Under the pieces are notes generated by a model, which worked only from the letters and a program-made list of their open reading frames with translations, was not told the origin of the DNA and did no database searches. A stretch of DNA of 64,000 nucleotides, from NCBI GenBank assembly GCA_965228475.1, contig OZ245817.1:1664001-1728000 (forward strand). The letters run 5' to 3'. This document shows positions 12,951-58,292 of the stretch, in pieces. Each line of letters opens with the position of its first letter. Within the stretch, counting starts at the first letter, position 1. This DNA is from Myxococcota bacterium (GTDB lineage: Bacteria > Myxococcota_A > UBA9160 > JAFDDA01). The translations under genes and the position numbers were made by a program.

Positions 12951-12965
12951 AGCGCCGGGCTCGGC

Positions 12966-12994
12966 TTGACGAAACCGGGGACGTCGCTTACACA
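12966..12994 (+). promoter_or_regulatory. sigma70-type promoter of the leu leader
   Basis: TTGACG-N17-TACACA, 10 nt before the leader ATG. Confidence 0.5.
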
Positions 12995-31550: not shown

Positions 31551-31583
31551 ACGGCCCGCGAACCCCAAGTGAGAGGCCCCATC

Positions 31584-31676
31584 GTGGGAAGCGTCATCAA
31601 GAAGCGCCGCAAGAAGATGCGGAAGCACAAGAAGCGGAAGCTGCTCCGCCGCGCGCGCCACAAGCGCAAGCGCTAG
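31584..31676 (+). CDS. 30S ribosomal protein bS22 (AURKAIP1/COX24 family), 30 aa
   Basis: MGSVIKKRRKKMRKHKKRKLLRRARHKRKR; GAGAGG RBS. Confidence 0.9.
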   Translation: MGSVIKKRRKKMRKHKKRKLLRRARHKRKR

Positions 31677-31956: not shown

Positions 31957-32014
31957 GGCGCGCAACAGTGGCCGTAGTGCCTCGTTCTTTGGATGAAAAC
32001 GGGGAAGAATGCCG

Positions 32015-32042
32015 TCAAGTTCGGTGAAACGGGTTCCGATGG
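32015..32042 (+). promoter_or_regulatory. sigma28-type promoter of the histone-like gene
   Basis: TCAAG-N15-TCCGATGG. Confidence 0.55.
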
Positions 32043-32156
32043 TTGGCGCAAGCGCCGTGTTCGCGAAAGCGGGCGGGGCGTGTGTCGTTGGTCTGTCGGG
32101 TCCGTTCCCCGTTGGGCGCGGTACTCGGAGCCACACAACATGGGGGAAACCCAAAC

Positions 32157-32558
32157 ATGGCCGCTCGTAAGCGGAAGGCCAAGAAGAAGGCCACAAAGAA
32201 GGCCACGCGACGTCGGAAGACGACGCGGAAGAAGGCCACCAAGCGCAAGACCAAGAAGAAGGCCGCCAAGAAGAAGGCGACCAAGAAGAAGGCCAAGCGG
32301 AAGGCCGCCAAGAAGAAGGCGACCAAGAAGAAGGCCAAGCGGAAGACCGCAAAGCGGAAGGCCGCGAAGCGCAAGACCAAGAAGAAGGCCAAGCGCAAGA
32401 CCGCCAAGCGCAAGACCAAGAAGAAGGCCAAGCGCAAGACGGCGAAGCGCAAGACCAAGAAGAAGGCCAAGCGCAAGACTGCCAAGCGCAAGACCAAGCG
32501 CAAGGCCAAGAAGAAGGCCACGAAGAAGGCTACGCGGCGCCGCCGCAAGAAGGCCTGA
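32157..32558 (+). CDS. Histone H1/protamine-like basic protein (133 aa)
   Basis: Only K, R, A and T after the Met; KRKTAKRKTKKKA repeats; followed by a terminator. Confidence 0.85.
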   Translation: MAARKRKAKKKATKKATRRRKTTRKKATKRKTKKKAAKKKATKKKAKRKAAKKKATKKKAKRKTAKRKAAKRKTKKKAKRKTAKRKTKKKAKRKTAKRKTKKKAKRKTAKRKTKRKAKKKATKKATRRRRKKA

Positions 32559-32605
32559 TTCGGGTCGAAGCTTCAGCTCGCCCCACAAGGGTGGGCAGGC
32601 TGCGG

Positions 32606-32636
32606 ACCCCGGCCGACGCAAGTCGGCCGGGGTTTC
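32606..32636 (+). terminator. Intrinsic terminator between convergent genes
   Basis: ACCCCGGCCGAC-GCAA-GTCGGCCGGGGT then TTC. Confidence 0.8.
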
Positions 32637-32708
32637 GTCCGTCTGGGGCTCGGTGGCGTTTGGAGCGGTTGGAGGGCTGGGCCGGGCCGCGGAGGCGCCC
32701 CGGCGGGT

Positions 32709-33998
32709 TCAGCCGACGACGTCGATCGGGATCTCGATGTCGACCGTCGTGCCCTGGCCGATCTCGCTGCGGAGAGCGAGGGTTCCTTCGAGCAGGGTGA
32801 TCAGGTCCTGGACGAGGGAGAGGCCGAGGCCCGCCCCGCGGAAGCGGTTCGAGCCCGTGTCGTCGACCTGGTAGAACTCGTCGAACACGGATTCCTGGTC
32901 GTCCGGCGCGATGCCGATGCCGGTGTCCCGGATCGAGCAGCAGAGCCGGTCGTTCTCGACCCGCGCCGAGACCTCGATCGTGCCCTGGGGCGTGAACTTG
33001 GCGGCGTTGTCGAGCAGCAGGTAGAGCACCTGGTGGAGCTTCGCGAGGTCCGTGCGGATCTTCGGGAACGGTTCCTGGAGGCTCCGTTCGACGACCACGG
33101 GCTTGCCCTCGAAGGCGTCCTGGATGCTGAAGGTGACCTCCTCGACCACCTCGCGGAAGTTCACGTCCTGGACTTCCACGGGCAGCTCGCCCTGCTTGAT
33201 GCGCCAGAGGTCGAGGATGTTCTGGAGCGTGCGCAGGAAGCTCGTGCCCTCGTCGAGCGCGCCGCGCAGGCCGCTGCGGCTCTCCTCGGACAGGCCGTCG
33301 GTGTCGCTCGCCAGCACCGAGATGATCGCCTCGATGATGTTGTTGAGCGGCGCCCGCAGCTCGCGGGACATCTTCTCGATGAAGTCCTTCTTGAGCTTCT
33401 CGATCTTTCCGAGCTGCTCGTTGCTGCGGCGGAGCTCGATGTCCTGGGCGAAGAGCGCTTCGGAGAGCTTCAGGATCTCTTCCGCATCCTCTTCCGGGGG
33501 CGCGCCGCCGGCGGCGTCGGCCTTGCCCGCCGCGAGGAGGGCATGATCCAGCCGGATGGCGACGATCTCGGAGACGTGGGAGAGCGCCTGCCGGGCCGCA
33601 TCGGAAACCGTATTGGGTGCCGCGACGAGCAGGACGCCGTGCCAGCGGCTCCCGACGCACAGCGGAACCCCGACGAGGCCGCCGGCGCCGCGCACGCCGA
33701 GCGAGTCGAGCGGCGCGTAGGGCGTCGGCTCGGTGCGCTCGCGCAGATCCCGGAGGACGGGGAGCAGGGCCTCGGAGGCCTGGCGGGCCGCCGTCGGCGT
33801 CGCGAAGCCGGCTGCGGCGCGCAGCTGGGGCGCCGCGTCGCTCGGCGTCTCTTCGACGGAGGCGAACAGGAGAGCGAGACCGCCGCCGACGATCTCGACC
33901 GAGCGCGAGGTCGCCGCGCGGGCTGCCTGGGCGATGCCCTGGGTCAGGTCCGGGCCGGTGCTCGCCTCCGAGGCGCCGGTTTGCGTGGGATCGTTCAT
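32709..33998 (-). CDS. Histidine kinase-like protein (GAF-like + HisKA + HATPase) lacking the phosphoacceptor His
   Basis: H box reads MSRELRAPL; intact LLDNAAKFT, DTGIGI, FDEFYQ and GAGLGL boxes. Confidence 0.88.
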   Translation of the reverse strand: MNDPTQTGASEASTGPDLTQGIAQAARAATSRSVEIVGGGLALLFASVEETPSDAAPQLRAAAGFATPTAARQASEALLPVLRDLRERTEPTPYAPLDSLGVRGAGGLVGVPLCVGSRWHGVLLVAAPNTVSDAARQALSHVSEIVAIRLDHALLAAGKADAAGGAPPEEDAEEILKLSEALFAQDIELRRSNEQLGKIEKLKKDFIEKMSRELRAPLNNIIEAIISVLASDTDGLSEESRSGLRGALDEGTSFLRTLQNILDLWRIKQGELPVEVQDVNFREVVEEVTFSIQDAFEGKPVVVERSLQEPFPKIRTDLAKLHQVLYLLLDNAAKFTPQGTIEVSARVENDRLCCSIRDTGIGIAPDDQESVFDEFYQVDDTGSNRFRGAGLGLSLVQDLITLLEGTLALRSEIGQGTTVDIEIPIDVVG

Positions 33999-34007
33999 CG
34001 CCCCACC

Positions 34008-35144
34008 TCAGTCCGTCTCGATCTCGAGGATCTCGGTGCGGCCGGGTTCCTCGTCCCGCTCGCTGGCGGCGGCGCCTTCGAGGGAGAGCTTCGTCTGGAA
34101 GTCCGTCGGGTTGGTGGCGGCGTTCAGCGCCGTCTCCACCGAGATCTTGTTGGCGGTCACGAGGTCGAGCAGATGCTGGTCGAAGGTCTGCATCTTCTCG
34201 GTCTTGCCCTTGGCCATGAACTCGGTGATCGCCTCGTTCTTGGACGGATCCTTGATGCACTCGCGGATGCTGCGCGTGCTGCGCATGATCTCGACCGCGG
34301 GCACCCGCCCGGTCTTCTTCTTGTTGAGCAGCAGACGGAGCGAAACGACGGCCTTCAGGTTGTCCGCGAGCCGCGCCCGCACCTGGTTCTGCTCCTCGCT
34401 CGGGAAGAAGGAGACGAGCCGGTTGATCGTGCTGGCGACGTCGTTCGTGTGGATCGTCGAGAAGACCAGGTGGCCCGTCTCGGCGGCCTTGAGCGAGGTG
34501 TCGACCGTTTCGAGGTCGCGCATCTCGCCCACCATGATGACGTCCGGGTCCTGGCGCAGGGCGGCGCGCAGCGCGTCCGGGAAGCTCCCGGTGTCGGTTC
34601 CGATCTCGCGCTGGGTGACGATCGCCTTGTCCGGCTGGAACACGAACTCGATCGGGTCCTCGACGGTGACGATCTTGGCCTTGCGCGTGTGGTTGATCTC
34701 GTTGATCACCGTCGCGAGCGTGGTCGACTTGCCCATGCCGGTGGCACCGGTGACGAGCACGTAGCCGCGCCGGAGCGCGGCGAGGTCGGCGACGGAGGCG
34801 GGCAGGTTCAGCTCGTCCGCGCCCTGGACCTCGAGCGGGATCACGCGCAGGACGATGTTGTAGAAGCGGCGCTGGCGCGAGATGTTGACGCGGAAGCGGC
34901 CTTCGCCGGGCAGCTCGAAGGCGAGGTCGCGCTCGTTGAAGTCGAGGCCGAGGTCGCGCGGGTCGGACTCGACGAGAAGCTGGGCGATGCACTCCGTGTC
35001 TTCGGGGGTCAGCACCTTGTACCGCAGCTCGACCAGTTCGCCGTGGAAGCGGTAGAGCGGCAGATAGCCGACCTGGAAGTGGATGTCGGAGGCGCCCTTC
35101 TCGATCCCGAGACGCAGCAGCCGGAACAGTTTTTCGCGATCCAT
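34008..35144 (-). CDS. pilT: Type IV pilus retraction ATPase, PilT/PilU family
   Basis: ASDIH, GATGMGKST, TVEDPIE, LRQDPDVIMVGEMRD, STIHT, MQTFDQ. Confidence 0.92.
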   Translation of the reverse strand: MDREKLFRLLRLGIEKGASDIHFQVGYLPLYRFHGELVELRYKVLTPEDTECIAQLLVESDPRDLGLDFNERDLAFELPGEGRFRVNISRQRRFYNIVLRVIPLEVQGADELNLPASVADLAALRRGYVLVTGATGMGKSTTLATVINEINHTRKAKIVTVEDPIEFVFQPDKAIVTQREIGTDTGSFPDALRAALRQDPDVIMVGEMRDLETVDTSLKAAETGHLVFSTIHTNDVASTINRLVSFFPSEEQNQVRARLADNLKAVVSLRLLLNKKKTGRVPAVEIMRSTRSIRECIKDPSKNEAITEFMAKGKTEKMQTFDQHLLDLVTANKISVETALNAATNPTDFQTKLSLEGAAASERDEEPGRTEILEIETD

Positions 35145-35214
35145 CGAGGATCCCCTGGTGGAGGCTCTCGGGCCTCCTTGCGGAAGACATCGGATGGGAA
35201 CGTGCCCTGCTTGC

Positions 35215-35241
35215 GTATCGGCCTTTCGCCCCACGCCTTGA
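35215..35241 (-). promoter_or_regulatory. sigma28-type promoter of the pilT operon
   Basis: Minus strand TCAAG-N14-GCCGATAC, near consensus. Confidence 0.75.
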
Positions 35242-35331
35242 CTTCTTCTCCGTCCGCGGCCTGAGGCTTCGTCGCCCGCCGCGGCGGGGCGGATCCCGGG
35301 CGGGCGTGGGGTGGACGCTATACTCCCGCCC

Positions 35332-35853
35332 GTGCGCACGACCTTCTCGTGGATAACCCTGGCCTGGCTCGTCGCGGCGGCGCCCGTGGTGCTCGCGGAC
35401 GAGCCGCCCGCGGCCCCGCTGGGCGCCGGGGCAGCCGAGGCCGACGCGCCGGCCTCGAAGCCCGTCGTGCCCCTCGAGCGCCTCTTCGAGCTGCCGAGCG
35501 GCTTCGAGACCCGGCCCGTGGAGAGGCGGTCCGGGAAGGACGAGGCCACCTGGCGCCGCCGCTTCGCCGACGCCCGCTCGGCCATCTCCTCCTCCGAGTC
35601 CGCCCTGGCGGCCTCGAAACGGGAACTCGCCGATCTCGCCGAGGACTCCAATGCCTGGACCCTCGCTCCGCCCGTGGGTGTTCCCGCCCAGAGCCACGAT
35701 GCGCCTCTTTCCTACCAGCTCCGCCAGAAGATCCGGCGCCAGGAGGGAGAGGTGGCTTCGGCGAAGGAGCAGCTGCTGAACCTCGAGGTGGAGGCCAACC
35801 TGAAGGGCGTCCCCGACGAGTGGCGGAGCGTGGAAGCTGCTTCCCGAAACTGA
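35332..35853 (+). CDS. Secreted coiled-coil protein, unknown function
   Basis: Signal peptide; coiled coil; ends GVPDEWR; GTG 7 nt after TATACT. Confidence 0.7.
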   Translation: MRTTFSWITLAWLVAAAPVVLADEPPAAPLGAGAAEADAPASKPVVPLERLFELPSGFETRPVERRSGKDEATWRRRFADARSAISSSESALAASKRELADLAEDSNAWTLAPPVGVPAQSHDAPLSYQLRQKIRRQEGEVASAKEQLLNLEVEANLKGVPDEWRSVEAASRN

Positions 35854-36640
35854 CGAGGCCCTCCTGGCCTACGCCCAACCCGCCGGGCCGGCGCCCGGCG
35901 CGAAGGGTCTCTTCCCCGACGAGAGCTGGCTACGCCGTGTCTCCGGCTCACCCGTTGCGATCTTCGGAGGTGGTCGAGCACTCCTGCTCGAGGTGGCCCA
36001 TCCCTTCGTGGCGGCCGGCGTGGCGGAACACTCGGCGTATCGCACGGACCCCTTCGGCCGATTGCAACGCACCCTCGCGGCCATGTCGGCGATCACCTTC
36101 GGCACCGTCCCGGCGGCCCTGGCGGCAGCGCGCGGCGTCGAGCGTGCCCACGCGCACGTCGTCGGGACGCTCCCGGAGACGGTGGGGCGCTACCGGGCCG
36201 GAACTCCCTACAGCGGCCGCGATCCCGAAGCCGTGCGCTGGGTGTGGGCGACCCTCGCCGACACGGCCTGGTGCATCTACGAACGCTTCGTCGAGCCCCT
36301 CGACGCCGAGGCGTGCGAAGCCTACTACGCGGACCATCGGGTCCTGGCGCGGCTTCTCGGGGTTCCGGCCGAGATCGTGCCCGAAGACTGGCCGGGCTTC
36401 CGGGCCTACTTCGACGGCATGCTCGAGGGCGATGCCCTTGCGGTTTCGGCCCAGGCGCGGGACATCGCGCGCCACGTGCTCGCCGCGCCGGACCCGGTGA
36501 CGGGAGCGAAGGCCCGGACGATCACCGCCGGCCTGCTGCCCGAGGCCTACCGCACGGCCTTCGAGCTGCCGTGGGACGCCGCCGAAGCCGCGCGCTTCGA
36601 GGAGCTCATCGCTTCGGTCCGGCGCCTCCGGGCGGGCTAG
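35837..36640 (+). CDS. Oxygenase MpaB / DUF2236 family protein
   Basis: GLFPDESWLRRV..GGGRALLLEVAHP, DPFGRLQRT, WVWATL; probable CTG start after GGAG. Confidence 0.8.
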   Translation: MLPETDEALLAYAQPAGPAPGAKGLFPDESWLRRVSGSPVAIFGGGRALLLEVAHPFVAAGVAEHSAYRTDPFGRLQRTLAAMSAITFGTVPAALAAARGVERAHAHVVGTLPETVGRYRAGTPYSGRDPEAVRWVWATLADTAWCIYERFVEPLDAEACEAYYADHRVLARLLGVPAEIVPEDWPGFRAYFDGMLEGDALAVSAQARDIARHVLAAPDPVTGAKARTITAGLLPEAYRTAFELPWDAAEAARFEELIASVRRLRAG

Positions 36641-36710
36641 GGCGGGGGAGGGCGCTTGCGGGGCGCCCGGGGATCGGGCACCCTGCCGCCGCCGCAACCG
36701 AGGAGCACCC

Positions 36711-36854
36711 ATGGCCGACCCGCAGAACGAAGAAGAGAACGAGGGCGTCGTCGACACGACCGCGATCCTCTACATCGTGGGCGGAATCCCGGCCATGGTC
36801 GCCTACTTCGTGATCCTGTTCCTGCTGGCGCGCTGGTTCAACGTCGCCGCCTAA
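36711..36854 (+). CDS. 47-aa single-TM membrane protein
   Basis: GAGGAG RBS; MADPQNEEENEGVVDTTAILYIVGGIPAMVAYFVILFLLARWFNVAA; typical codon bias; not in the ORF track. Confidence 0.75.
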   Translation: MADPQNEEENEGVVDTTAILYIVGGIPAMVAYFVILFLLARWFNVAA

Positions 36855-37076
36855 CTAAGGGCGCCTCCGGCCCCGGCTCCCGCCTCTCCTGGGCCCGCTC
36901 TTGCCGGTTCATTTTCCCCTCATTTCAGTTGCCTTCGTCCCGCCGCCCGTCGATGGCGCAGGCGGCGCTGCAACGTGTGGGCCGTGAAGGGCTTTTCGTT
37001 TCTCCAGAGATCTTGACCTCGCGAGACCAGGCGCAGGCTAAACCCCACACTCCCGATTTCCGAAACCGCCTCTGTC

Positions 37077-37817
37077 ATGAGTGCGGTACTTCCCCAACAC
37101 CCCATTCGCCTGTGCAGCCTTCTGGTGGCCCTCTGGGCCCTTGCCGGTGGGGCGACCCCCCTGGCTCCGGTCAGCGCCGGCCAGGCCAACTCCTACGACT
37201 ACTTCGAGAAGCCGAGCGCCCTCGACCCGTGGACGCCGAAGATCCGCGGCTGGCAGCTCCGGGAGCGGGCCCAGCCCGAGATCACCGAGCTGGCCGACCC
37301 GCCGCCGGCCGTCTCGACCAGCGGGCGCCCGACCGTGAAGGTCCGCGGCGAGAGCCTGCGCGACCGCTACTTCCGCTACCGAAGCGACACGAAGCGCGAG
37401 ATGGCCCGGGAGCTCGTCGGCTGGATGCAGAAGATCGCGAAGCGTCACTACGTCGCCGACGGTCTGGTCGATCACTGGGCGACGCTCCAGGAAACCCTCG
37501 ACCGCAACGGCGACGACTGCGACGGCCTCGAGCTGCTCGCCTACCACTTCCTGCGCGACCACGGCTTCTCCGAGGATGAGGTGTTCCGCGCGATCGTCTA
37601 CCGCCCCGACGACGGGCAACACCACATGGTGACGCTCTGGTTCGAGGACGCGCGCGACCCCTGGGTCCTCGATCCGACGGGCGCCATGACGAGCGGCATG
37701 CCCCGGCTCTCGGAGCGGCCGAAGTGGGTTCCCCTGAAGGTCTTCACCGAGACCGAGCAGTTCACCGTCCGCGAAGGCAGCGGGCTCGATACGAACCGCT
37801 ACGCCCACCGCCGCTAG
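37077..37817 (+). CDS. Periplasmic transglutaminase-like cysteine peptidase (C93/LapG-like)
   Basis: Signal peptide; DHWAT..ETL...GDDCDG...HMV...VLD (Cys-His-Asp). Confidence 0.78.
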   Translation: MSAVLPQHPIRLCSLLVALWALAGGATPLAPVSAGQANSYDYFEKPSALDPWTPKIRGWQLRERAQPEITELADPPPAVSTSGRPTVKVRGESLRDRYFRYRSDTKREMARELVGWMQKIAKRHYVADGLVDHWATLQETLDRNGDDCDGLELLAYHFLRDHGFSEDEVFRAIVYRPDDGQHHMVTLWFEDARDPWVLDPTGAMTSGMPRLSERPKWVPLKVFTETEQFTVREGSGLDTNRYAHRR

Positions 37818-37892
37818 GTTCCCGGGCCGAGGCATCGAGCCCCCGGCCGGACCGTTGGCCCCCGCCGGAACCCTCGGTTAGCGTCCGACTCC

Positions 37893-38717
37893 GTGTCCGA
37901 CCTGCCGCCCATCGACCCCGAACGCCTGCGCGAGCGGCGCGAGCGCGTCTTCCTGATCCTGGCCGGGATCTTCCTCGGGACCCTGGCCCTGCTGAACGTG
38001 CTCGGGATCAGCCGCTTCCTGCGCCTCGGCCAGATCGGCGAGGGGCCCGACGCCTGGGTCTTCGCCGTGGCCGTCGGTGTCCTGCCCTATCCCGTGACGT
38101 TCCTCTGCACGGACTTCATCTGCGAGCTCTACGGGCGCCGGCGGGCCAACTTCGTCGTGTTCGTCGGCCTGATCCTGAACCTCTGGGTCGTCGCCCTGCT
38201 CTGGCTCGGCGGAGAGCTGCCGGGCTTCTCGGTGATCGACCCGGCGACGGGCATGCCGCCCCGGGACGCCGACGACTGGGCCTTCTTCCGCATCCGCGAG
38301 CTGACCTTCGGCGCCGTGGCCGCCTCGATGTTCGCCTACCTGGCGGCGCAGTTCTGCGACGTCCAGCTCTTCCATTTCTGGAAGCGGCTCACGAAGGGCC
38401 GCCACCTCTGGCTGAGAAACAACGGCTCGACCGTCGTGAGCCAGATCGTCGATACCACCGCCGTCATCCTGATCACCCACTACTACGCGAACGCGCTGCC
38501 GATCAACGAGGACGCCCCGTTGGCGCGCCAGCTCGCGACGTTCATCGCGACCGGCTACGCGTTCAAGCTCGTCGTGGCGCTGCTCGACACGGTTCCGTTC
38601 TACATCGGCGTCCACTATCTCTCGCGCTACCTGCGGCTCGAGCCCGGTGAGGAGAAGACGGGGCTCGAGCTCGGCATGTTCGGCGCCGAGGGCGAAGGCA
38701 AGGGGGACCCCCGCTGA
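37893..38717 (+). CDS. Queuosine precursor transporter (YhhQ/Vut family)
   Basis: YPVTFLCTDFICELYG, AYLAAQFCDV, LWLRNNGSTVVSQIVDT. Confidence 0.9.
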   Translation: MSDLPPIDPERLRERRERVFLILAGIFLGTLALLNVLGISRFLRLGQIGEGPDAWVFAVAVGVLPYPVTFLCTDFICELYGRRRANFVVFVGLILNLWVVALLWLGGELPGFSVIDPATGMPPRDADDWAFFRIRELTFGAVAASMFAYLAAQFCDVQLFHFWKRLTKGRHLWLRNNGSTVVSQIVDTTAVILITHYYANALPINEDAPLARQLATFIATGYAFKLVVALLDTVPFYIGVHYLSRYLRLEPGEEKTGLELGMFGAEGEGKGDPR

Positions 38718-39106
38718 GCGCCGCCGGGGAGCCCGGTCGACTGTTCGTCTACGGCACCCTGCGCCGGGGGCTCGCGCCGGCGCAGCTGGCCTGGCTCGAC
38801 GGCGTCGAACGCGAGCCGGCCGAGGTCGCGGGCCTGCTCCTCGACCTCGGCGACTACCCGGGCTTCCTGCCCGATCCCGGGGGCTCCGGCCGCGTGCGCG
38901 GGGAGCTCCTGGTCGTGACCGGAGAGCAGTGGGAGCCGCTCGATCGGTACGAGGGGTTCCATCCCGAGGATCCTGCGCGAAGCCTCTTCGTGCGCGAGCG
39001 GACGGTCGCCCGCGCGCCGTCGGGAGAGCATCCGTGCTGGATCTACCGGTACGCGGGCCCGCGTGCGGGGCACGACGTCGTGGCCTCGGGCGACTGGCTG
39101 GCCTAG
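38714..39106 (+). CDS. Gamma-glutamylcyclotransferase (AIG2-like)
   Basis: LFVYGTLRRG, DLGDYPG, VRGEL, LDRYEG, SGDW; CTG start overlapping the upstream TGA. Confidence 0.85.
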   Translation: MSAAGEPGRLFVYGTLRRGLAPAQLAWLDGVEREPAEVAGLLLDLGDYPGFLPDPGGSGRVRGELLVVTGEQWEPLDRYEGFHPEDPARSLFVRERTVARAPSGEHPCWIYRYAGPRAGHDVVASGDWLA

Positions 39107-39113
39107 GCCGGCC

Positions 39114-41306
39114 CTAGGGTGCGCCTTCCACGTCGAGCTCGAGCTCCTTGCGCTGGCGCTCGGCCTCGGCCGCGGCCTTGGCGCGCTCGCGCTGGATCTC
39201 GACGAGGAGTTCCTTGCGCGCGGCCTCGGCGGCCTCGCGCTCCACGGCGATGCGGCCCCGCCGCAGTTCGAGCAGCTTGCGCTCGAGGAGCCGGTTCTTC
39301 TTGCTCACGAGTTCGCGCGGCACTTCGGGGTCCGCCTCGCCGGGCGCGTGCTGCAGGGTGACCTTCTGGCGCGCGACGCGGCCGTCGTCGGCGCGGGCGG
39401 TGACCTCGATCTCGTTGCGGCCGACCTCGAGCGGAACGAGCGCCGTCCAAGAGCCGTCGACGTTCAGCTGGACCTGCTCCGCCACGTCCCCGGTCGTTCG
39501 GTTCGTGAGCTCGACGCTCTCGATCTCCGTGAACTTCACGACCTCGACGACCTGGACGAGGTCGCCCGGGTCGCGCACCGGGGTGAAGAAGCCGTCGGTG
39601 CGCTCGGCCATCTCGACGACGGCGACCGGGCCGGCCAGGGCCTCCTGGCCGAGGGCGAAGGAGTGGATGCGCAGGCCGCCGCGGCGCGCGCGCTCCGCGG
39701 CCCGGAAGACGGCTTCGACGTTCGCCCGTTCGAGGTGGTCGTAGGGGAGGGTGGGCTGCCCGTCCGTGAAGAAGAGCACGATCTTCTCCGCCTCGGGGTC
39801 GACCTCGGAGAGCGAGCCCTGAAGGCCGAGGAGCTCGATCGTGGCCTGGTCGACGCCCGCGGCCATGTGGGTGAGCCCGCTCGGGCCCCGTTGGAAGACG
39901 CGCTTCAGGGCGGCGTCGACGAGCTCGTAGTCGCGCGTCAGCGGCTCCTCGGTGATGGCGGGCTGCCGCCGTCCGCCGCCGATGCGGAAGACGCCGGGCT
40001 GCGGGTCGTGGGCCGACTCCCCGGCGAAGGTCACGAGGCCGACCCGGGTGCTGCGCGGATCGAGCCCGAGCAGGAGCTGTCGCGCCGCGAGGATCTCGGC
40101 GGCCAGCACGGAGTCGCCCGGGTCCGTCATGCCGAGCCCGAAGATCCCGCCGACCGGGCCGAGAGGGAGCTTCCCGACCCTGCCGTCCCCGTCGACGTCG
40201 TGGCCCGTCGGCTCGTGGGTCGAGCCCGAGGTGTCGATCACGAAGATCACGTCGAACTTCTTGAACTCGCCGTGGACGGCCATCGCGCGGCCGGCCAGGA
40301 AGGCGCCGGCCCGGTTGCCGACGACGGCTTCTTCGCCGGGATACTCGACGGCCAGGCGCAGCTCGCTCTCGCCGACGCCCTGGTCGACGTAGCGGCGCGG
40401 CGGGGACGGGCGCGAAGCCGCAGCGGTCGTGGTCCGGTTGCTCGAGGCGACGGGGACCGGCCGCATGCGCTTCGGGTCGGGGACGCCGTCGTCCTCCTCG
40501 GCCTCGCGGTCGAAGGGGTTGCCCTTGGGCGGCGTGAGCTCCCAGGCGTAGTTCTCGTAGTGGGAGAACGGCTGGCCGAGCCCCTTGGCCAGCGGCGTCT
40601 TCAAGGCGTCGAGGACGCCGTCGATCGGTGCGATGCCGAGGCGGTAGGTTCCGCCGATGGGCCACGCGCCCTCGAGAATGCCGAGCACCCGGCCCGACCC
40701 CTCGGCCACGACCGGCGCTCCGCCCCAGCCGCGCAGGTCCTCCGGCGCGTCGAGGTCCACCTCGATCCGTTCGTTGCTGACCTCGACGAGCGTCCCGCGC
40801 AGCTCGGTCTGGTCGCTGCGCCCGACGTTCGGAATGCCGAGGATGCGGACCCGCTCTCCGGCGCGCGGAAGCTTCCCGACCGCCGGGTCGAGGATGCGCA
40901 CGCCGCTCGGCGCGAGGTCGAGGGCGAAGACGATGAAGTCGCCGCGGAGCGTGCCGCCCGGGAGTCGGAAGGGTTTGCCCGGCTTGGCGAGGTAGCGGCT
41001 GGCGACCGAGACCTGGGTTCCGGAGCCCGGCAGCATGAAACGGACCTCGCCGGCCTGCCCGAGCTTCTCGAGGTCGAAGGAGTGGGCGGCCCCGACGGCC
41101 ACGAAGCCGACGTCGTCGGCCGGGACGTCCTGGGGAAGCGCCAGGAAGAAGACCGTGCTGTGGGATTGGAGCTCTCCCCCGTGGTGGTAGGTCGGGCGCG
41201 CTACGGCGGGGGCGCTCTGGGAGCCAGGCTGGGCGGCCGCCGGCGCCGCCGCGGCCAGGACGAAACAGAGGGCCAGCGCGGAGCGGAGTGCGGGGCAGCT
41301 CGTCAT
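39114..41306 (-). CDS. Secreted protein: degenerate trypsin-like domain + vWA (MIDAS) + Ig-like strands + coiled coil
   Basis: Signal peptide; IDTSGST, T and FFTDG MIDAS residues; LVPLEVGRNEIEV; charged helical tail. Confidence 0.82.
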   Translation of the reverse strand: MTSCPALRSALALCFVLAAAAPAAAQPGSQSAPAVARPTYHHGGELQSHSTVFFLALPQDVPADDVGFVAVGAAHSFDLEKLGQAGEVRFMLPGSGTQVSVASRYLAKPGKPFRLPGGTLRGDFIVFALDLAPSGVRILDPAVGKLPRAGERVRILGIPNVGRSDQTELRGTLVEVSNERIEVDLDAPEDLRGWGGAPVVAEGSGRVLGILEGAWPIGGTYRLGIAPIDGVLDALKTPLAKGLGQPFSHYENYAWELTPPKGNPFDREAEEDDGVPDPKRMRPVPVASSNRTTTAAASRPSPPRRYVDQGVGESELRLAVEYPGEEAVVGNRAGAFLAGRAMAVHGEFKKFDVIFVIDTSGSTHEPTGHDVDGDGRVGKLPLGPVGGIFGLGMTDPGDSVLAAEILAARQLLLGLDPRSTRVGLVTFAGESAHDPQPGVFRIGGGRRQPAITEEPLTRDYELVDAALKRVFQRGPSGLTHMAAGVDQATIELLGLQGSLSEVDPEAEKIVLFFTDGQPTLPYDHLERANVEAVFRAAERARRGGLRIHSFALGQEALAGPVAVVEMAERTDGFFTPVRDPGDLVQVVEVVKFTEIESVELTNRTTGDVAEQVQLNVDGSWTALVPLEVGRNEIEVTARADDGRVARQKVTLQHAPGEADPEVPRELVSKKNRLLERKLLELRRGRIAVEREAAEAARKELLVEIQRERAKAAAEAERQRKELELDVEGAP

Positions 41307-41426
41307 GCCCGGCAATCTAGCGCGCCTGCTTGGCGGAGCGTCTGCGGGCCGTGCGCTGGCTTGACGCGCAGGGGGTGTGCCATACCGTAGAGGTCCCTCC
41401 TCCTGATCCTCCAGGAGCGCTGTCGC

Positions 41427-42326
41427 CTGTCTGTTTCAGACTCCGCCTCGAACGCGATATTCGAGTCGATCCTTGCGGAACTGCGCCGAAAGGATGGGGG
41501 ACTTCCCGTGGCCCACGTCGCGCGGGCCCTGCTCGCGGCCTCGAGCGCGCCCCCCGAGCCGCTGGCCCGCCAGATCGTGGGAGCCGCTCTGGGACGCCCG
41601 CCCTCGGCGGTGCCGGCCTGGCTCCAGGCGGAAGACCTCACCGTCGAATCGCCCGAGCCCGACTGGAGATCGACCCCGCTCGCCCGGGCGGAGTTCCATG
41701 TCGTCGATCTGGAAACGACGGGGCTCTCGCGCCAGTGCGACATCCTCGAGATCGGGGCCGTCCACCTCGCGGCCGGGCGCCGGGTCTCGCAGTTCTTCAG
41801 CCTGGTGCGTCCGGCCTCGGGGCGGGTCCCGGTGAAGATCACGGCCCTGACCGGCATCGACGATTCGCTGGTTCGCGATGCGCCGCCCCAGGGCGACTGC
41901 CTGCGCCGCTTCCGCGCCTGGCTCGACCGCTCGCCCGGCGCGGTGTTCGTCGCCCACAACGCGCCCTTCGATTCGGGCTTCGTTCGCCGCGGCTTCGCTC
42001 GCTACGGGCTCCCGACCCTCGCCGCCCCCGTCCTCTGCACCCGAAAGCTCGGCCGCCGGGCCGTGCCCGAACTGCTCCGCTACGACCTCGACCGCCTCTG
42101 CGGCCACTTCGGAATCGACAACGGCGCCCGCCACCGCGCGACCGGCGACGCCTCGGCGACGGCGGATCTCCTGCTGGCGATGCTCGAGCGGCTCCCGGGC
42201 GAGGTCGCGACCCTCGGCGATCTGTTCGACCGCCTCGCCGCGCCGCCGCCTCCGCGCCCGGGCGCGAAGCGCAGCCGGAACCGCCGGTCTCGGGCGAAAC
42301 CCCGTCCGCCGGCCCCGAACGCCTAG
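41427..42326 (+). CDS. DEDDh 3'-5' exonuclease (DnaQ/PolC-like)
   Basis: VDLETTG, VAHNAPFD, HRATGDA; start is CTG 41427 (after AGGAG) or GTG 41508. Confidence 0.88.
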   Translation: MSVSDSASNAIFESILAELRRKDGGLPVAHVARALLAASSAPPEPLARQIVGAALGRPPSAVPAWLQAEDLTVESPEPDWRSTPLARAEFHVVDLETTGLSRQCDILEIGAVHLAAGRRVSQFFSLVRPASGRVPVKITALTGIDDSLVRDAPPQGDCLRRFRAWLDRSPGAVFVAHNAPFDSGFVRRGFARYGLPTLAAPVLCTRKLGRRAVPELLRYDLDRLCGHFGIDNGARHRATGDASATADLLLAMLERLPGEVATLGDLFDRLAAPPPPRPGAKRSRNRRSRAKPRPPAPNA

Positions 42327-42339
42327 GGGCAAGGGCCCA

Positions 42340-42367
42340 TCCAGCGGCGGCGGAAGGGCGCCGATGT
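42340..42367 (+). promoter_or_regulatory. sigma28-type promoter of motAB
   Basis: TCCAG-N15-GCCGATGT. Confidence 0.5.
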
Positions 42368-42433
42368 AGCACTCGTACCTGACCCGGTTCCGGCCACGCT
42401 GGCCCGGAACGGAGCGCGACGAGGCGGTTCGAA

Positions 42434-43192
42434 TTGGACCTCGCAACCATTATCGGCCTGATCACGGCCTTCGCGTTGATCATCGGCTCGATGCTGCTCG
42501 GTGGCTCGCTCTCGGCCTTCGCCAACGCTCCCGGTCTGTTGATCGTGGTCGGCGGCACGTTCGCAGCGGCCTTCATCAACCAGCGCATGACCCACGTGCT
42601 CGGGGCGTTCAAGGTCATGCTGCAGGCGTTCTTCGACAAGACCACGCCCCTCGACGAGCAGATCCCGATCATCATCGGACTGGCCCAGAAGGCGCGGAAG
42701 GAAGGTCTCGTCGCGCTCGAAGGCGAAGAGATCTCGGACGAGTTCCTCGCGCGGGGCGTGCGCCTCGGTGTCGACGGCCTCTCGCCGGAGATGATCCGCG
42801 CCACGCTCACGAGCGAGCTCGCCGCGGTGAAGCGCCGGCACGAGCGCGGCCAGAAGCTCTTCAAGTTCATGGAGGCGACGGCGCCGGCCATGGGCATGAT
42901 CGGCACCCTGATCGGCCTGGTGCAGATGCTCCAGACCCTCTCGGACCCGTCCGCGATCGGCCCCGCCATGGCGGTCGCGCTCCTCACCACTCTCTACGGC
43001 GCGATCCTCGCCTTCGTGATCTTCGGGCCCATCGCCTCGAAGCTCGAGGGGCGCACCAACGACGAGGTCGCGGCCAAGAGCCTCGCGATCGCCGGCGTCG
43101 AGTCGATCCTCAAGGGCGACAACACGATGCTCATCCAGTCGAAGCTCGAGGCCTACCTCTCGCCCATCGAGCGCGAAAAGAACGCCGAGTAG
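42434..43192 (+). CDS. motA: Flagellar stator A subunit (PomA-like)
   Basis: MDLATIIG, ARKEGLVALE, APAMGMIGTLIGL, GPAMAVALLTTLYG. Confidence 0.95.
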   Translation: MDLATIIGLITAFALIIGSMLLGGSLSAFANAPGLLIVVGGTFAAAFINQRMTHVLGAFKVMLQAFFDKTTPLDEQIPIIIGLAQKARKEGLVALEGEEISDEFLARGVRLGVDGLSPEMIRATLTSELAAVKRRHERGQKLFKFMEATAPAMGMIGTLIGLVQMLQTLSDPSAIGPAMAVALLTTLYGAILAFVIFGPIASKLEGRTNDEVAAKSLAIAGVESILKGDNTMLIQSKLEAYLSPIEREKNAE

Positions 43193-43198
43193 CCGGCG

Positions 43199-44017
43199 GT
43201 GTCCGACGAGATCGAAGAGGGTGGCGGCGGCGACGGCGGTTCCCCGGCATGGATGGCGACCTTCGGCGACCTGATGAGTCTCCTGCTCTGCTTCTTCGTC
43301 CTCCTGCTCTCCTTCGCGACCATGGACATCATCAAGTTCACCCAGATGGTGGGGTCGCTGCAGAGCGCCTTCGGCGTCCAGCAGGAGATCGTCGCCGATT
43401 TCCGGTCGCTCTCGACGTCGCCCATCGAGTTCTCGGCGACGCCGTCCTCGCCCCAGCTCGACATCCTCGAGACGCCGACCACGGGCCACAGCCAGAGCGA
43501 CGAGTCGCGCCGGCTCGTGACCGAGATCGAGCGCGTGGTCCGGGAGCTCCAGCTCGAAGACGCCGTCGAGGTCGAGAACGAGCAGCGCGGCGTCGTCCTG
43601 CGCGTGAGCGGGAAGCTCCTGTTCGGCTCCGGCGGGACGGAGATCAGCGAGGAGTCCGCGCCGCTGCTCGAGCGGATCTCGGAGATCGCGGGCAAGGTCT
43701 CCAACCAGATCAGCATCGAGGGGCACAGCGACGACCAGCACATCGAGAGCGAGCGTTATCCGAGCAACTGGCACCTGGCGGCCGGCCGTGCGATCTCGAC
43801 CCTCGACCACCTCTCCGAGGAGAACGGCCTCGACCGCTCGCGCATGAGCGCCACCTCTTATGGGGAGACCCGCCCGCTCGTCCCCAACGATTCCGAGGGC
43901 GGCCGCTCGACGAACCGCCGCGTGGAGTTCGTCTTCCTGCGCGATTCCCACGCGACCTCGCGCTACGCGCCCGGTTCCCCGGCCCGGGTCCTCGAAGAGG
44001 CGGGGATTTTCGACTGA
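43199..44017 (+). CDS. motB: Flagellar stator B subunit (PomB-like)
   Basis: WMATFGDLMSLLLCFFVLL TM; OmpA-like domain with EGHSD, SNWHL, NRRVE. Confidence 0.95.
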   Translation: MSDEIEEGGGGDGGSPAWMATFGDLMSLLLCFFVLLLSFATMDIIKFTQMVGSLQSAFGVQQEIVADFRSLSTSPIEFSATPSSPQLDILETPTTGHSQSDESRRLVTEIERVVRELQLEDAVEVENEQRGVVLRVSGKLLFGSGGTEISEESAPLLERISEIAGKVSNQISIEGHSDDQHIESERYPSNWHLAAGRAISTLDHLSEENGLDRSRMSATSYGETRPLVPNDSEGGRSTNRRVEFVFLRDSHATSRYAPGSPARVLEEAGIFD

Positions 44018-44144
44018 CGAGGCCGCCCGAACCGTTCGCCGTGAAACGCTTGCAACATCCCGTTTCAACAAGGATTTCAAGCTGAGCGGCGGCCCCCTCG
44101 ATTCCCCCGGCGCGGTTTTTCGCATGGAATCGCGGAGTTGGAGC

Positions 44145-44171
44145 TAAAGACCGCGTGTGACTCGCCGATCC
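44145..44171 (+). promoter_or_regulatory. sigma28-type promoter of the kinase/response regulator genes
   Basis: TAAAG-N14-GCCGATCC. Confidence 0.7.
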
Positions 44172-44209
44172 CTGGGCCTGTAGGTGGCTCAAAATGAGGG
44201 GGATCGAAA

Positions 44210-45013
44210 GTGAGTCAGCGGAAGGCATCGCGGCCTGAAAGGCCGGACGCTTCAGATCGCACGGCACGGGCCCCCGAGGCGCCGGCCTGCGAGCCGCCCT
44301 CCGAGATCCGGCTGCCCGCCTCCGTCGCCCACGAACTCGCGAACCCGCTCGTCGCGATGACCCAGGCCGTTTCGGTCCTGCGCGGAAGCCTCGAGGATCC
44401 CGACGACGTCGAGCTCGCCGACTGCGTCCTCACCGAAGGGCGCCGCCTCCGCCGCCTGATCCAACGCTCCGCGGCGGCGGGGTGGCGGCCGGTTCGCGCC
44501 GTCGACGCCACCGCCATCGAAGAGTTGATCCACGCCGTGGTCGCCCTGGTCCGACTCGACCCGCGCGCGCCCGCCGACGTCCGCTTCCACCTGCGCCTCG
44601 AGCCCGGCCTCGAACCCATCCCGATGGACCGCGACGCCGTGACCCAGGTGCTCTGGAACCTCGTGTTGAACGCCGTCCAGGCGGTGGACCGGGAGGGCAA
44701 CGTGACGGTCCTCGCCGAGCGGGCCACCGGCGGAGGCCTGCGCGTGGAGGTCCGGGACGACGGCCCGGGGGTTCCGGCGGGCGACGTCGAGGGTCTCTTC
44801 GCGACCGGCGTGAGCCTTCGCGCGGAAGGAACCGGCCACGGGCTCGCCGTCTCGCGGGAGATCGTCGAGGCCCACGGCGGGGCGCTGACCTTCGAACCCT
44901 CGGAGTCGGGCGGCGCCCGGGTCCGCTTCTTGCTCCCCCGCAACGGCCCTCCCTCGCACGCAGGAACCTCGGAAACCCAAACGGACCCCACGGGCTCGCG
45001 CCCGACGAACTGA
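44210..45013 (+). CDS. Cytoplasmic histidine kinase without a sensor domain
   Basis: AHELANPL, NLVLNAVQA, DDGPG, GTGHGL. Confidence 0.85.
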   Translation: MSQRKASRPERPDASDRTARAPEAPACEPPSEIRLPASVAHELANPLVAMTQAVSVLRGSLEDPDDVELADCVLTEGRRLRRLIQRSAAAGWRPVRAVDATAIEELIHAVVALVRLDPRAPADVRFHLRLEPGLEPIPMDRDAVTQVLWNLVLNAVQAVDREGNVTVLAERATGGGLRVEVRDDGPGVPAGDVEGLFATGVSLRAEGTGHGLAVSREIVEAHGGALTFEPSESGGARVRFLLPRNGPPSHAGTSETQTDPTGSRPTN

Positions 45014-45029: not shown

Positions 45030-46418
45030 GTGTCCCAGATTCTCGTCGTCGACGACGAAAAGACGATCCGCATGGCCCAGGCCACGGCCCTGCGGCGAGC
45101 GGGTTTCGACGTAGAAACCGCCGCCACGGGGGAAGAGGCCGTGGCGATGGTGCGCGACACCCCCTTCGGCCTGGTCCTGAGCGACGTTCGGCTCCAGGGG
45201 ATGGACGGGATGGAGGTGCTGCGCGCCGTCCGCGCGGCGAGCCCGGGCACCCAGGTGATCCTGATGACGAGCTTCGGCACCGTCGAGGACGCCGTCGAGG
45301 CGATGCAGCTCGGCGCCCACAGCTACGTCCGCAAGCCCATCGAGATGGCCGACCTCGAGCCGATCGTCCGCGAATGCCTCGCGGCGGGCGGCAGCGGGGC
45401 GGAGTCCGCGGCGGCCCCGCCGAGCCAGCGCGCCGACGCCGGGCGCGATTCCTTCGCCGGCATCATCGGCGACTCCCGCAAGATGCGGGAGCTGCTCGAG
45501 CTCGTCGGCAAGGTCGCCGACACGGACAGCACCGTCCTGATCACCGGGGAGACGGGCACCGGCAAGGAGCTCGTCGGGCGCGCGATCCACAACGCGAGCC
45601 GGCGCCGCGAGCGCGTCTTCAGCGCAGTGAACTCGGCGGCCTTCCCCGAGACGCTCCTCGAAAGCGAGCTGTTCGGGCATCGCCGCGGAGCCTTCACCGG
45701 AGCGAGCAGCAACAAGAAGGGGCTGTTCGAGCACGCCCACCAGGGCACGGTGTTCCTCGACGAGGTCGCCGAGATGCCGCTCTCGATGCAGGCGAAGCTG
45801 CTGCGCTTCCTGCAGACCGGCGAGATCCGCCCCGTGGGCGGGGAGGCCACGCGTCTCGTCGACGTCCGCCTCGTCACCGCCACCAACAAGAATCTCGAGG
45901 ACGAGGTCGCCCGCCGAACGTTCCGGGAAGACCTGTACTACCGGCTGGCGGTGATCCCGGTGCACGTGCCGCCGCTGCGCGACCGCATCGAGGACGTCCC
46001 GCTCCTGGCGCGCCACTTCCTGCGCGGCTTTGCTGCGAAGATCGGGAAGGACGTCGGCGAAGTGAGCGACGAGGCCATGCAGGCCCTGCTCGCCTACGAC
46101 TGGCCCGGCAACGTGCGCGAGCTCGAGAACTCGATCGAGCGCGCCGTGGCCCTCTGCCGCACCGATCGCGTCCTGCGCGACGACCTGCCCGGGCGCATCC
46201 TCGAGCGCCGCGTCGCCCTGCCGTCGAACGGCATCCAGAGCCTTCAGACCCTCGAGCGCGCCCACATCATCGACACGCTCGAGAAGGTCGGCTGGAGCCG
46301 CAAGCGCGCGGCCGAGCTGTTGAACATCTCCACCACCACGCTCTGGCGCCGGCTCAAGGAGTTCGGGATCGACGCGTCCGCATCGCGCCCGCCCGAGTCC
46401 GTCCAGCCGCAGCCCTAG
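45030..46418 (+). CDS. sigma54-dependent response regulator (NtrC/AtoC family)
   Basis: Receiver domain; GETGTGKE, ESELFGH..GAFTGA, WPGNVRELEN; Fis-type HTH. Confidence 0.95.
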   Translation: MSQILVVDDEKTIRMAQATALRRAGFDVETAATGEEAVAMVRDTPFGLVLSDVRLQGMDGMEVLRAVRAASPGTQVILMTSFGTVEDAVEAMQLGAHSYVRKPIEMADLEPIVRECLAAGGSGAESAAAPPSQRADAGRDSFAGIIGDSRKMRELLELVGKVADTDSTVLITGETGTGKELVGRAIHNASRRRERVFSAVNSAAFPETLLESELFGHRRGAFTGASSNKKGLFEHAHQGTVFLDEVAEMPLSMQAKLLRFLQTGEIRPVGGEATRLVDVRLVTATNKNLEDEVARRTFREDLYYRLAVIPVHVPPLRDRIEDVPLLARHFLRGFAAKIGKDVGEVSDEAMQALLAYDWPGNVRELENSIERAVALCRTDRVLRDDLPGRILERRVALPSNGIQSLQTLERAHIIDTLEKVGWSRKRAAELLNISTTTLWRRLKEFGIDASASRPPESVQPQP

Positions 46419-54849: not shown

Positions 54850-55661
54850 GCGCGCCGCGGCCGGTGGCCGTCGTCAGTGGGAAGGGTGGCGTCGGGAAGA
54901 CGCACCTGGTCGTGAACCTCGGCGTGGCCGCGGCTGCGCGGGGCACGCGCGTGCTGGTCGTGGACGGGGATCTCGGTCTGGCGAACATCGACGTCCTGCT
55001 CGGCCTCGTCCCCGAGCGCTCGATCGCGGACGTGGTCGCCGGCGAATGCAGCCTCTCCGAGGCCCTGCTGCCCGGCCCGGGCGGGATCCACGTGCTGCCC
55101 GCGGCGTCGGGGCGGAGCGAGCTCGCCGCCCTCGGCGGGAACCGTCTCACGCGTCTGGTCGCCGAGCTCTGGAACGCGGCGCGGGAGTTCGACCTGGTCT
55201 TGATCGACGCCGGCGCCGGCATCGGCTCCTCCGTCGTCGGGCTCGCAGCGGCGTGCACGCGCGGCCTGCTCGTCACGACCCCCGAGCCGACCAGCCTGGC
55301 GGACGCGTACGCGACCCGGAAGGTGCTGCGTCACTATGCCCCGGCCCTGGATCTCTCCCTCGTCGTGAACCACGCCAAGAGCGAGCTCGAGGCCCATCGC
55401 ACCCACACCCAGCTCGATCGACTCTCACGCCGGTTTCTCTCGGCGCCGATCGCGCTCTCCGGGTTCCTTCCGCGCGACCCCAAGGTCGGGGAAGCCGCCC
55501 GTCTGCAGCAGCCGGTGTCGCTGGCCTTCCCGCAGTCGCCCTTCGCGCGCCGTCTCCTGCCCCTCGCCGACGCCCTCGTCACCGTCGCCCGGAAACCCGG
55601 ATCGAAGCCCGCGCCCCAACCCATCCCACGCCGCAACCCAGCCGGAGTCACCCCATCATGA
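54846..55661 (+). CDS. flhG: MinD-like ATPase FlhG/FleN
   Basis: SGKGGVGKT, DGDLGLANIDVLLG, TPEPTSLADAY. Confidence 0.93.
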   Translation: MSAPRPVAVVSGKGGVGKTHLVVNLGVAAAARGTRVLVVDGDLGLANIDVLLGLVPERSIADVVAGECSLSEALLPGPGGIHVLPAASGRSELAALGGNRLTRLVAELWNAAREFDLVLIDAGAGIGSSVVGLAAACTRGLLVTTPEPTSLADAYATRKVLRHYAPALDLSLVVNHAKSELEAHRTHTQLDRLSRRFLSAPIALSGFLPRDPKVGEAARLQQPVSLAFPQSPFARRLLPLADALVTVARKPGSKPAPQPIPRRNPAGVTPS

Positions 55662-58276: not shown

Positions 58277-58292
58277 TGGCACGCGCCTTGCT
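58277..58292 (+). promoter_or_regulatory. sigma54 (-24/-12) promoter of the flgF operon
   Basis: TGGCAC-GCGCC-TTGCT, a full consensus match. Confidence 0.9.

Follow-up and report, generated by a model that had tools for sequence, protein, structure and literature searches.

In this study, we analysed a window of 64,000 nucleotides from the genome of an uncultured Myxococcota bacterium (G000, a single contig of 5.0 Mb with ~70% G+C; the window is G000:C1:1664001-1728000). Five sigma-28-like motifs in the window precede a histone-like gene, a pilT gene followed by a kinase gene, a gene for a LapG-like protease, the stator genes motAB, and the genes of a histidine kinase/sigma-54 activator pair. 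The five motifs lie far beyond chance, as judged by shuffled DNA, antisense controls and cross-validation. We consider it probable, with good confidence, that they are promoters read by RNA polymerase with the one FliA/WhiG-family sigma factor of this genome, and that they belong to a predicted regulon of roughly 130-170 promoters, about thirty times the five sites. A first-pass annotation of the window had proposed one sigma-28-type regulon linking these genes. The presence of a FliA gene, the enrichment and strand bias of the motif and its conservation all support this proposal.

The five sites described in that annotation are present at their positions and on their strands, are intergenic, and each is directed at the gene named for it. 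The promoter of the histone-like gene (32013..32044, + strand; site 32015-32042) has a -35 box TCAAG at 32015-32019, an N15 spacer and a -10 box TCCGATGG at 32035-42. The promoter of the pilT-kinase unit (35213..35243, - strand; site 35215-35241) reads TCAAG-N14-GCCGATAC, and that of the LapG-like gene (37037..37068, + strand; site 37039-37066) reads TAAAC-N15-TCCGAAAC. motAB is preceded by TCCAG-N15-GCCGATGT (42338..42369, + strand; site 42340-42367) and the kinase/sigma-54 activator pair by TAAAG-N14-GCCGATCC (44143..44173, + strand; site 44145-44171). All five fit the sigma-28 (FliA/WhiG) class, with a GCCGATAA-like -10 box and a TAAA/TCAA-like -35 box ~15-16 nt apart. The classical FliA consensus is TAAA-N15-GCCGATAA, as quoted in a report on Rubrobacter (PMC8325347). 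With a matrix from the full genome, the sites score 18.1 (histone-like), 18.4 (pilT), 17.3 (LapG-like), 17.3 (motA) and 16.1 bits (kinase). With a matrix trained on 2.5-5.0 Mb, the half of the genome without the five sites, the scores are 15.8, 17.6, 15.4, 13.8 and 16.9 bits, respectively.

Flagellin promoters were tried as the seed of this matrix and rejected. Two of the five flagellins have a GCCGA-type -10 box by eye, and one reaches at least 14 bits. Since they were a poor seed, the motif was derived genome-wide. A two-box matrix was built from 11 strict seed sites and refined with a flexible spacer of 12-14 nt over 2891 upstream regions. The best score was at least 14 bits in 174 of the 2891 regions, compared with a mean of 10.6 in five dinucleotide shuffles. 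At a threshold of at least 16 bits the figures were 134 and 4.0, and at 18 bits or more they were 81 and 1.0. When gaps between genes of the same direction were examined (n = 1605), sites of at least 14 bits were sense in 96 cases and antisense in 3. The sense to antisense ratio on held-out halves of the genome was 44:2 (858 regions) and 32:3 (747 regions). The enrichment over shuffled DNA that a common regulon would entail was thus found, and it is strand-biased and holds on held-out sequence.

The consensus of the 174 sites is cTCAAG-N15-GCCGA(T/A). The -10 box counts are G 128, C 151, C 174, G 174, A 171 and T/A 115/55, so that CCGA is almost invariant, and those of the -35 box are T 164, C 144, A 145, A 165 and G 134. 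The modal spacer occurs in 144 of the 174 sites. When the whole genome was scanned at a threshold of at least 16 bits, 150 of 214 matches were non-coding. The word GCCGATA has 170 copies on both strands of the genome, of which 55 lie in the ~9% that is non-coding, and 47 of these 55 are directed at the next gene. A repeat or mobile element was ruled out as the source of the motif, as the spacer sequence is different at every site. A housekeeping promoter was also ruled out, as the Pfam matches of the 80 top-scoring genes include no ribosomal-protein, tRNA-synthetase or other translation-machinery family.

Genes were called with our own codon-usage and third-position G+C (GC3) caller, which gave 4353 genes covering 91% of the genome and is crude, with uncertain start codons. 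In 29 of the 174 promoters, exactly 7 nt separate the end of the -10 octamer from the predicted start codon, and in 12 more the distance is 8-10 nt. The site before G000:C1:1248532 is one example. A transcription start would be expected at just this distance, seven nucleotides, from a sigma-28 -10 box. The peak cannot be a product of the gene caller, which is blind to the motif. A -10 box at 7 nt from the start codon would make about a fifth of the regulon leaderless, and this suggests a sizeable class of leaderless mRNAs from sigma-28-type promoters.

A search of the genome for a fliA-family sigma gene yielded one, at G000:C1:2162464-2163228 (- strand), ~434 kb past the end of the window. The protein scores 278.1 bits on TIGR02479 (cut-off 189.6) over model positions 2-224, and its gene has no stop codons. 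No other FliA/WhiG-family copy in the genome is above the curated cut-off, the five other sigma genes reaching 83-109 bits on the model. Among solved structures, the protein is closest to the sigma chains of 6pfv (236 bits) and 6pfj (232 bits), which we take to be WhiG-RsiG complexes, and E. coli FliA (6pmi) follows at 191 bits.

We investigated the conservation of the five promoters before orthologous genes in 30 relatives from 12 families of the same order. PilT-family orthologues with 68-90% identity were found in 27 of the 30 relatives. The pilT promoter was kept at 14.5-21.4 bits in 27 of 27 loci, G000 included; three loci were left out, one without upstream DNA (L117) and two paralogues with 47% identity (L123 and L124). 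An unusual short spacer length is common to all of these loci, and the spacer sequence has diverged. The LapG-like promoter scores at least 13 bits in 27 of 28 loci (G000 included) and at least 14 bits in 23, and the best antisense score is always below 13 bits; a partial match (L161) and a second copy (L162) were left out. All 19 histone-like loci with full flanks (1500 nt) have CTTCAAGT/CGTCAAGT-N13-(C/T)TCCGATAGGG-like sites of 16.8-21.8 bits, a count that leaves out four loci with short flanks, and in at least 17 of the 19 a syntenic Lys/Arg-rich open reading frame (ORF) beginning MAARK follows the site. Seven flagellated relatives have this motA, and in five of them a site of 16.9-22.0 bits stands after motB, before the kinase/activator pair. 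The -10 CCGAT of the motA promoter is kept in six of these seven, with total scores of 6.6-14.6 bits. The expected conservation before orthologues thus held for four of the five promoters (pilT, LapG-like, histone-like and kinase), but was weak for motA.

We next surveyed the Pfam content of the genes behind the 80 best sites, all of which score at least 18.1 bits. Eight genes encode GGDEF and/or EAL domains, six PilZ domains and two HDOD domains (one also with GGDEF). Four encode T2SSE ATPases, namely a PilB/MshE-like protein, the PilT of the window and two more. The others include one methyl-accepting chemotaxis protein (MCP), several receiver-domain proteins, two cNMP-binding proteins, three sulfatases, two sulfotransferases, a bactofilin, Lon, a Roadblock/LC7 protein, two DUF4388 proteins and the PP2C phosphatase beside fliA, and 18 genes have no family. 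Genome-wide, a gene's own site of at least 14 bits was found for 11 of 20 PilZ, 9 of 17 GGDEF and 4 of 8 EAL genes. Taken together, 21 of 39 distinct PilZ, GGDEF or EAL genes have their own site against a background of 174 in 4353 genes (hypergeometric P 4e-20). All six pilus-type (T2SSE-type) ATPase genes are covered by four promoters.

To place the motif in relation to the flagellum, we compared the distribution of FliA with that of the flagellar export gate protein FlhA. Among the 30 relatives, FliA is above the cut-off in 27, while FlhA was found in 11 and this motA in 7. Five relatives, G008, G017, G029 and G010 (97-99% complete) and G022 (84%), have no match to FlhA, flagellin or FliG_C and none to this MotA at E <=1e-60, and all five have FliA together with conserved pilT and LapG-like promoters. 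We also sampled the order evenly, taking 81 genomes that are at least 90% complete, G000 included, in which non-detection in a draft genome is not proof of absence. FliA was found in 77 and FlhA in 26; 51 genomes have FliA without FlhA, and none has FlhA without FliA. FlhA is patchy within the order, even within genera (26 of 81 near-complete genomes and 16 of 47 genera, sample G005-G090), and these patchy flagellar genes point to repeated loss or gain. As FliA is intact in 51 genomes without a match to FlhA, it needs a non-flagellar job.

The motif itself was examined in G022 with the G000 matrix over a 400 kb sample. Seven of 228 upstream regions score at least 14 bits, compared with 0.2 in shuffles, and the sense to antisense ratio in same-direction gaps is 5:0. 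The genes behind these sites encode an MCP, a GGDEF protein, two PilZ proteins, an SH3-domain protein, a polyphosphate kinase and one protein without a family. The first-pass annotation had included swimming in the programme. motAB and the kinase pair do carry sites, but swimming is not its centre, because the motA promoter is the least conserved, only one of five flagellins has a site of at least 14 bits, and most relatives that keep FliA and these promoters have no flagellar genes found. One flagellin (upstream of G000:C1:3744956, L010) has a clear sigma-54-type promoter, TGGCACTCGTCTTGCT, in place of a sigma-28 promoter, so that two sigma factors share the flagellins.

Several points weigh against the assignment of the motif to FliA or against the size given for its regulon. 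FliA is proposed as the reader by motif likeness and co-occurrence, but FliA and the motif occur together in nearly every genome, so that their co-occurrence does not tell one sigma factor from another. Only one of five flagellins and one of three MCP genes have a site of at least 14 bits, unlike in textbook FliA regulons, and the motA site combines a poor -35 box with the weakest conservation of the five. The matrix was learnt and refined on G000 itself, which cross-validation offsets partly, and ~6% of the promoters listed at 14 bits are expected to be false (10.6/174). The 7-nt distance and the leaderless figures hinge on our crude gene caller, since the start codons are its own. The kinship of the 30 relatives means that the conservation counts overstate independence. 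Neither FlgM nor an RsiG signature was found that would point to a cognate anti-sigma factor. No FlgM (PF04316) was detected at E <=0.01 in G000 and four relatives, and since FlgM is short and divergent its absence is unproven. The RsiG motif E-x3-S-x2-R-x3-Q-x3-D has no match in the 4353 called proteins, where 1.2 would be expected by chance.

Three other explanations of the motif were considered. A real promoter class could be read by another sigma-70-family factor, for example one of five group 1-3 paralogues. The genome does hold five further sigma genes, with scores of 83-109 bits on the FliA/WhiG model, the motif stands before few of the classical late genes of the flagellum, and it persists in relatives in which no flagellar genes were found. 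However, the boxes and their spacing match the FliA/WhiG consensus of E. coli-type, Bdellovibrio and Rubrobacter promoters, as reported (PMC3627812, PMC8325347). FliA is also intact above the cut-off in 77 of 81 genomes, including 51 without an FlhA match, and the motif does stand before one flagellin gene, motAB and an MCP gene. We therefore regard a different sigma factor as unlikely.

An ordinary small flagellar class-III regulon, with real sites at motA, flagellin and MCP genes alone and composition-driven false positives elsewhere, those of pilT, the histone-like and the LapG-like gene included, is considerably less probable still. AT-containing words are rare in coding DNA of 70% G+C, so some intergenic enrichment is expected, and the matrix was refined on its own matches. 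However, dinucleotide shuffles of the same regions gave 10.6 sites against 174, antisense sites numbered 3 against 96, and the signal persisted on held-out sequence. The best conserved promoters are the non-flagellar ones, which are kept with diverged spacers, also in genomes without flagellar genes found, and the enrichment of c-di-GMP genes (P 4e-20) is a further argument against chance matches. The least credible of the alternatives is that the motif is bound by a transcription factor, whether an activator or a repressor, and is not a promoter. Conserved bipartite boxes with a variable spacer can be operator half-sites, but the boxes are neither palindromic nor repeated, their orientation toward the gene is strict (96:3), and the sharp 7-nt peak (29 of 174) fits a transcription start and not an operator. 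A FliA-read promoter class is the explanation that we prefer over these three.

In the proposed mechanism, the -35 box c-TCAAG would be read by sigma region 4.2 and the -10 box GCCGA-T/A by region 2.4, and transcription would start ~7 nt after the -10 octamer, which is the start codon in about a fifth of the promoters. The predicted regulon would take in more than half of the c-di-GMP genes (PilZ, GGDEF, EAL) and all type IV pilus-type motor ATPases. It would also include chemosensory and single-domain response regulators, sulfatases, sulfotransferases, the LapG-like protease and the histone-H1-like protein. In flagellated members, it would add the stator and the kinase/sigma-54 activator pair. 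From its gene content, this may be the dispersal or attack-phase programme that the first-pass annotation had in mind.

The control of FliA was then considered. In 23 of 28 genomes, some of them without an FlhA match, a sigma-54-type box, TTGGCA(C/T)-N5-GTGCT, is found ~140-205 nt ahead of the match to the FliA model. In G000, the box TTGGCATGAGCCGTGCT precedes fliA within G000:C1:2163229-2163593 (L001, L316). Directly upstream of fliA, and on its strand, is the gene of a sigma-54 activator response regulator, an arrangement seen in 24 of 29 fliA loci. Since fliA stands behind a conserved sigma-54-type promoter beside an activator gene, a likely wiring would run from a signal to the sigma-54 activator, to FliA and to the regulon. 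A PP2C phosphatase gene is convergent with fliA in 24 of 29 loci, and in G000 it lies behind a 21.0-bit sigma-28 site, which hints at partner-switching control of FliA.

A second sigma-54 step may act on the flagellar genes. The only match to the sigma-54 pattern in the window is TGGCACGCGCCTTGCT at 58277..58292 (+ strand); it is intergenic and stands before flgF, and flgF-flgG-flgA-flgH-flgI come after it. As this sole box precedes flgF, the activator encoded at 45030-46418 may feed back on flagellar genes, and the flgF promoter may be a target of this sigma-28-driven activator.

A broader reading for the whole order is possible, which we hold tentatively and put somewhat below an even chance. 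FliA would be a flagellum-independent master switch that is turned on by the adjacent sigma-54 activator. It would govern ~150 promoters, a fifth of them leaderless, and with them half of the c-di-GMP network, every pilus motor ATPase, the LapG-like protease and the histone-H1-like protein, while flagella would be an optional module attached via the sigma-28-driven kinase/activator pair. If this is true, the flagellar module inverts the usual order of sigma-54 before sigma-28. It would also be the third independent case of sigma-28 outliving the flagellum, after Chlamydia and actinobacterial WhiG, and by far the largest.

The identity of the individual gene products was examined with Pfam (E 0.01) and NCBIfam (E 0.001) profile searches of the window proteins. 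The histone-like gene (32157..32558, + strand) encodes a Lys/Arg-rich, histone-H1-like protein of 133 aa with K 65, A 27, R 22 and T 18, that is, 65% Lys+Arg with KKAT-type repeats. It matches no Pfam or NCBIfam family, including curated families of the Hc1/Hc2 type. The label "histone-like" therefore stands by composition, but not by curated family. Just upstream, a small conserved ORF at ~31570-31676 (+ strand), ending ...GSVIKKRRKKMRKHKKRKLLRRARHKRKR, is also present in several relatives (L206, L208, L210 and L215) and may resemble the tiny ribosomal protein bS22 family.

The pilT gene (34008..35144, - strand) encodes a type IVa pilus ATPase, and its assignment to the PilT/PilU family is secure (TIGR01420, 408.3 bits against a cut-off of 319.1). 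A histidine kinase gene with HisKA and HATPase_c domains (32709..33998, - strand) begins after a gap of 9 nt from the pilT stop and is syntenic in 23 relatives. The two genes probably form one transcription unit, judging from this arrangement.

The LapG-like gene (37077..37817, + strand) encodes a candidate secreted, transglutaminase-like cysteine protease. The protein has no Pfam match, and the NCBIfam LapG model (NF045674) reaches 21.6 bits against a cut-off of 320 (E 1e-4), over residues 131-223 only. C148, H182/H183 and D199, candidates for the catalytic residues, are invariant in 16 sequences. An AlphaFold model made with 16 orthologues has a mean pLDDT of 75.6, and a Foldseek search with this model gave Legionella LapG chains as the six best matches (E 9.5e-7 to 4.3e-6; TM by target 0.48-0.59). 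The name given to this protein thus holds for a LapG fold with a Cys-His-Asp triad, but fails the sequence family cut-off, and the protein probably works as a periplasmic transglutaminase-like cysteine protease. No LapD or LapA-type partner was found among the genes neighbouring it, and the genome was not searched for them. A role in adhesin release may be suggested by the distant LapG-like fold, with no LapD or LapA alongside. A LapG-like paralogue at G000:C1:3699058-3699939 also lies behind an 18.2-bit site.

The remaining genes of the region surround these units. They include an AMP-ligase gene. Between the pilT promoter and an MpaB-family gene (35993-36640, + strand) is a gene at 35332-35853 (+ strand) for which a family was sought in Pfam and NCBIfam and none matched. 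Genes for a Vut_1 transporter, a VWA protein and an RNase T-like exonuclease lie between the LapG-like gene and motA. motA (42434-43192, + strand; MotA_ExbB) and motB (43199-44017, + strand; MotB_plug, OmpA) are followed by the histidine kinase of the pair (44210-45013, + strand; HisKA, HATPase_c) and the sigma-54 enhancer-binding response regulator (45030-46418, + strand; Response_reg, Sigma54_activat, HTH_8). After the pair come fliL, fliM, fliN, fliOP, fliQ, fliR, flhB, flhA, flhF and a MinD-type flhG. Pfam confirmed the identities of FliL, MotA, MotB, the histidine kinase and the activator. An HDIG protein gene and then flgF-G-A-H-I-J come next.

The position after flhA-flhF-flhG is where fliA sits in many bacteria; here the HDIG-domain gene (55658-56512, + strand) comes after them and fliA is ~434 kb away. 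A sixth sigma-28-type candidate in the window, GCTAAAGC-N13-TGACGAAACCG at 12946-12977 (+ strand), is followed after 266 nt by a homocitrate-synthase-like gene. The full matrix gives this site 18.1 bits and cross-validation just 12.3, and it could serve a small unannotated gene or RNA.

The case described here mixes features of four known systems. The classical class-III regulon of E. coli and Salmonella, under FlgM export control, comprises the stator, flagellin, MCP, a PilZ brake-type protein and an EAL phosphodiesterase. The promoter architecture is the same here, and the stator, flagellin, MCP, PilZ and EAL kinds are each represented. In contrast to that regulon, no FlgM was found, most flagellins lack the motif and one has a sigma-54-type promoter, the kinase/sigma-54 activator pair is under sigma-28, and the regulon persists where no flagellar genes were found. 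The order known from Vibrio and Campylobacter, in which the sigma-54 activator acts before sigma-28, is the reverse of the arrangement of this pair.

Chlamydia trachomatis has no flagellum. Its sigma-28 drives the histone-H1-like hctB and the protease gene tsp late in development, and these two parallel the histone-like and protease genes here; the difference is that two promoters are involved there (PMC12282069). The likeness to HctB is one of composition only, as no Pfam or NCBIfam family links the histone-like protein to it.

In Bdellovibrio bacteriovorus, 92 of 140 mapped attack-phase promoters have the FliA consensus TTAAG-N16-CCGATA (Karunker et al. 2013, PMC3627812). The box spacing is identical to that of TCAAG-N16-CCGAT here. 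About a hundred or more promoters are involved in both cases, mostly of non-flagellar genes (there surface proteins, proteases, chemotaxis proteins and many unknowns), and FliA appears as a lifestyle regulator, not as a flagellar late-gene factor (PMC3627812). Bdellovibrio differs in being flagellated and in having a regulon established from mapped starts and phase-specific expression, whereas ours is predicted from sequence (PMC3627812). The present organism is an uncultured member of the Myxococcota, most of its relatives have no flagellar genes found, c-di-GMP and pilus-motor genes dominate, and fliA is behind a sigma-54-type promoter.

In the unicellular Rubrobacter, the (RsiG)2-(c-di-GMP)2-WhiG system has 12 confirmed promoters, of which three concern the type IV pilus and five diguanylate cyclase/phosphodiesterase (DGC/PDE) genes (Schumacher et al. 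2021, PMC8325347). Both there and here, a sigma-28-family factor would serve a non-flagellar use in pilus and DGC/PDE genes. The Rubrobacter regulon is small, however, and is gated by RsiG, reported in that paper only from Actinobacteria (PMC8325347), while no RsiG motif was found here. The present case differs from its four precedents in its scale, in persisting across a clade whose genomes mostly show no flagellar genes, in having no anti-sigma factor known for it and in its sigma-54-type input. In the literature searched, a single paper, on a Peredibacter genome, mentions FliA together with Myxococcota.

In teaching, sigma-28 is presented as the sigma factor of late flagellar genes. The exceptions known so far are Bdellovibrio, with a global attack-phase role, Chlamydia, with two genes, and actinobacterial WhiG, with sporulation or pili. 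In this study, comparison between genomes points to a conserved sigma-28 regulon of large size in a widespread uncultured branch of the Myxococcota. Of the near-complete genomes that we sampled there, about two thirds retain FliA but show no match to FlhA, the flagellar export gate. This provides, for organisms known only from metagenomes, a regulatory map of ~170 candidate promoters, a consensus and a candidate upstream sigma-54 step. The flagellated and non-flagellated relatives form a natural series for studying how a regulon is re-purposed after its machine is lost. These results also suggest that sigma-28 has repeatedly become linked in evolution with type IV pili, c-di-GMP turnover and an H1-like nucleoid protein, an idea that is now testable.

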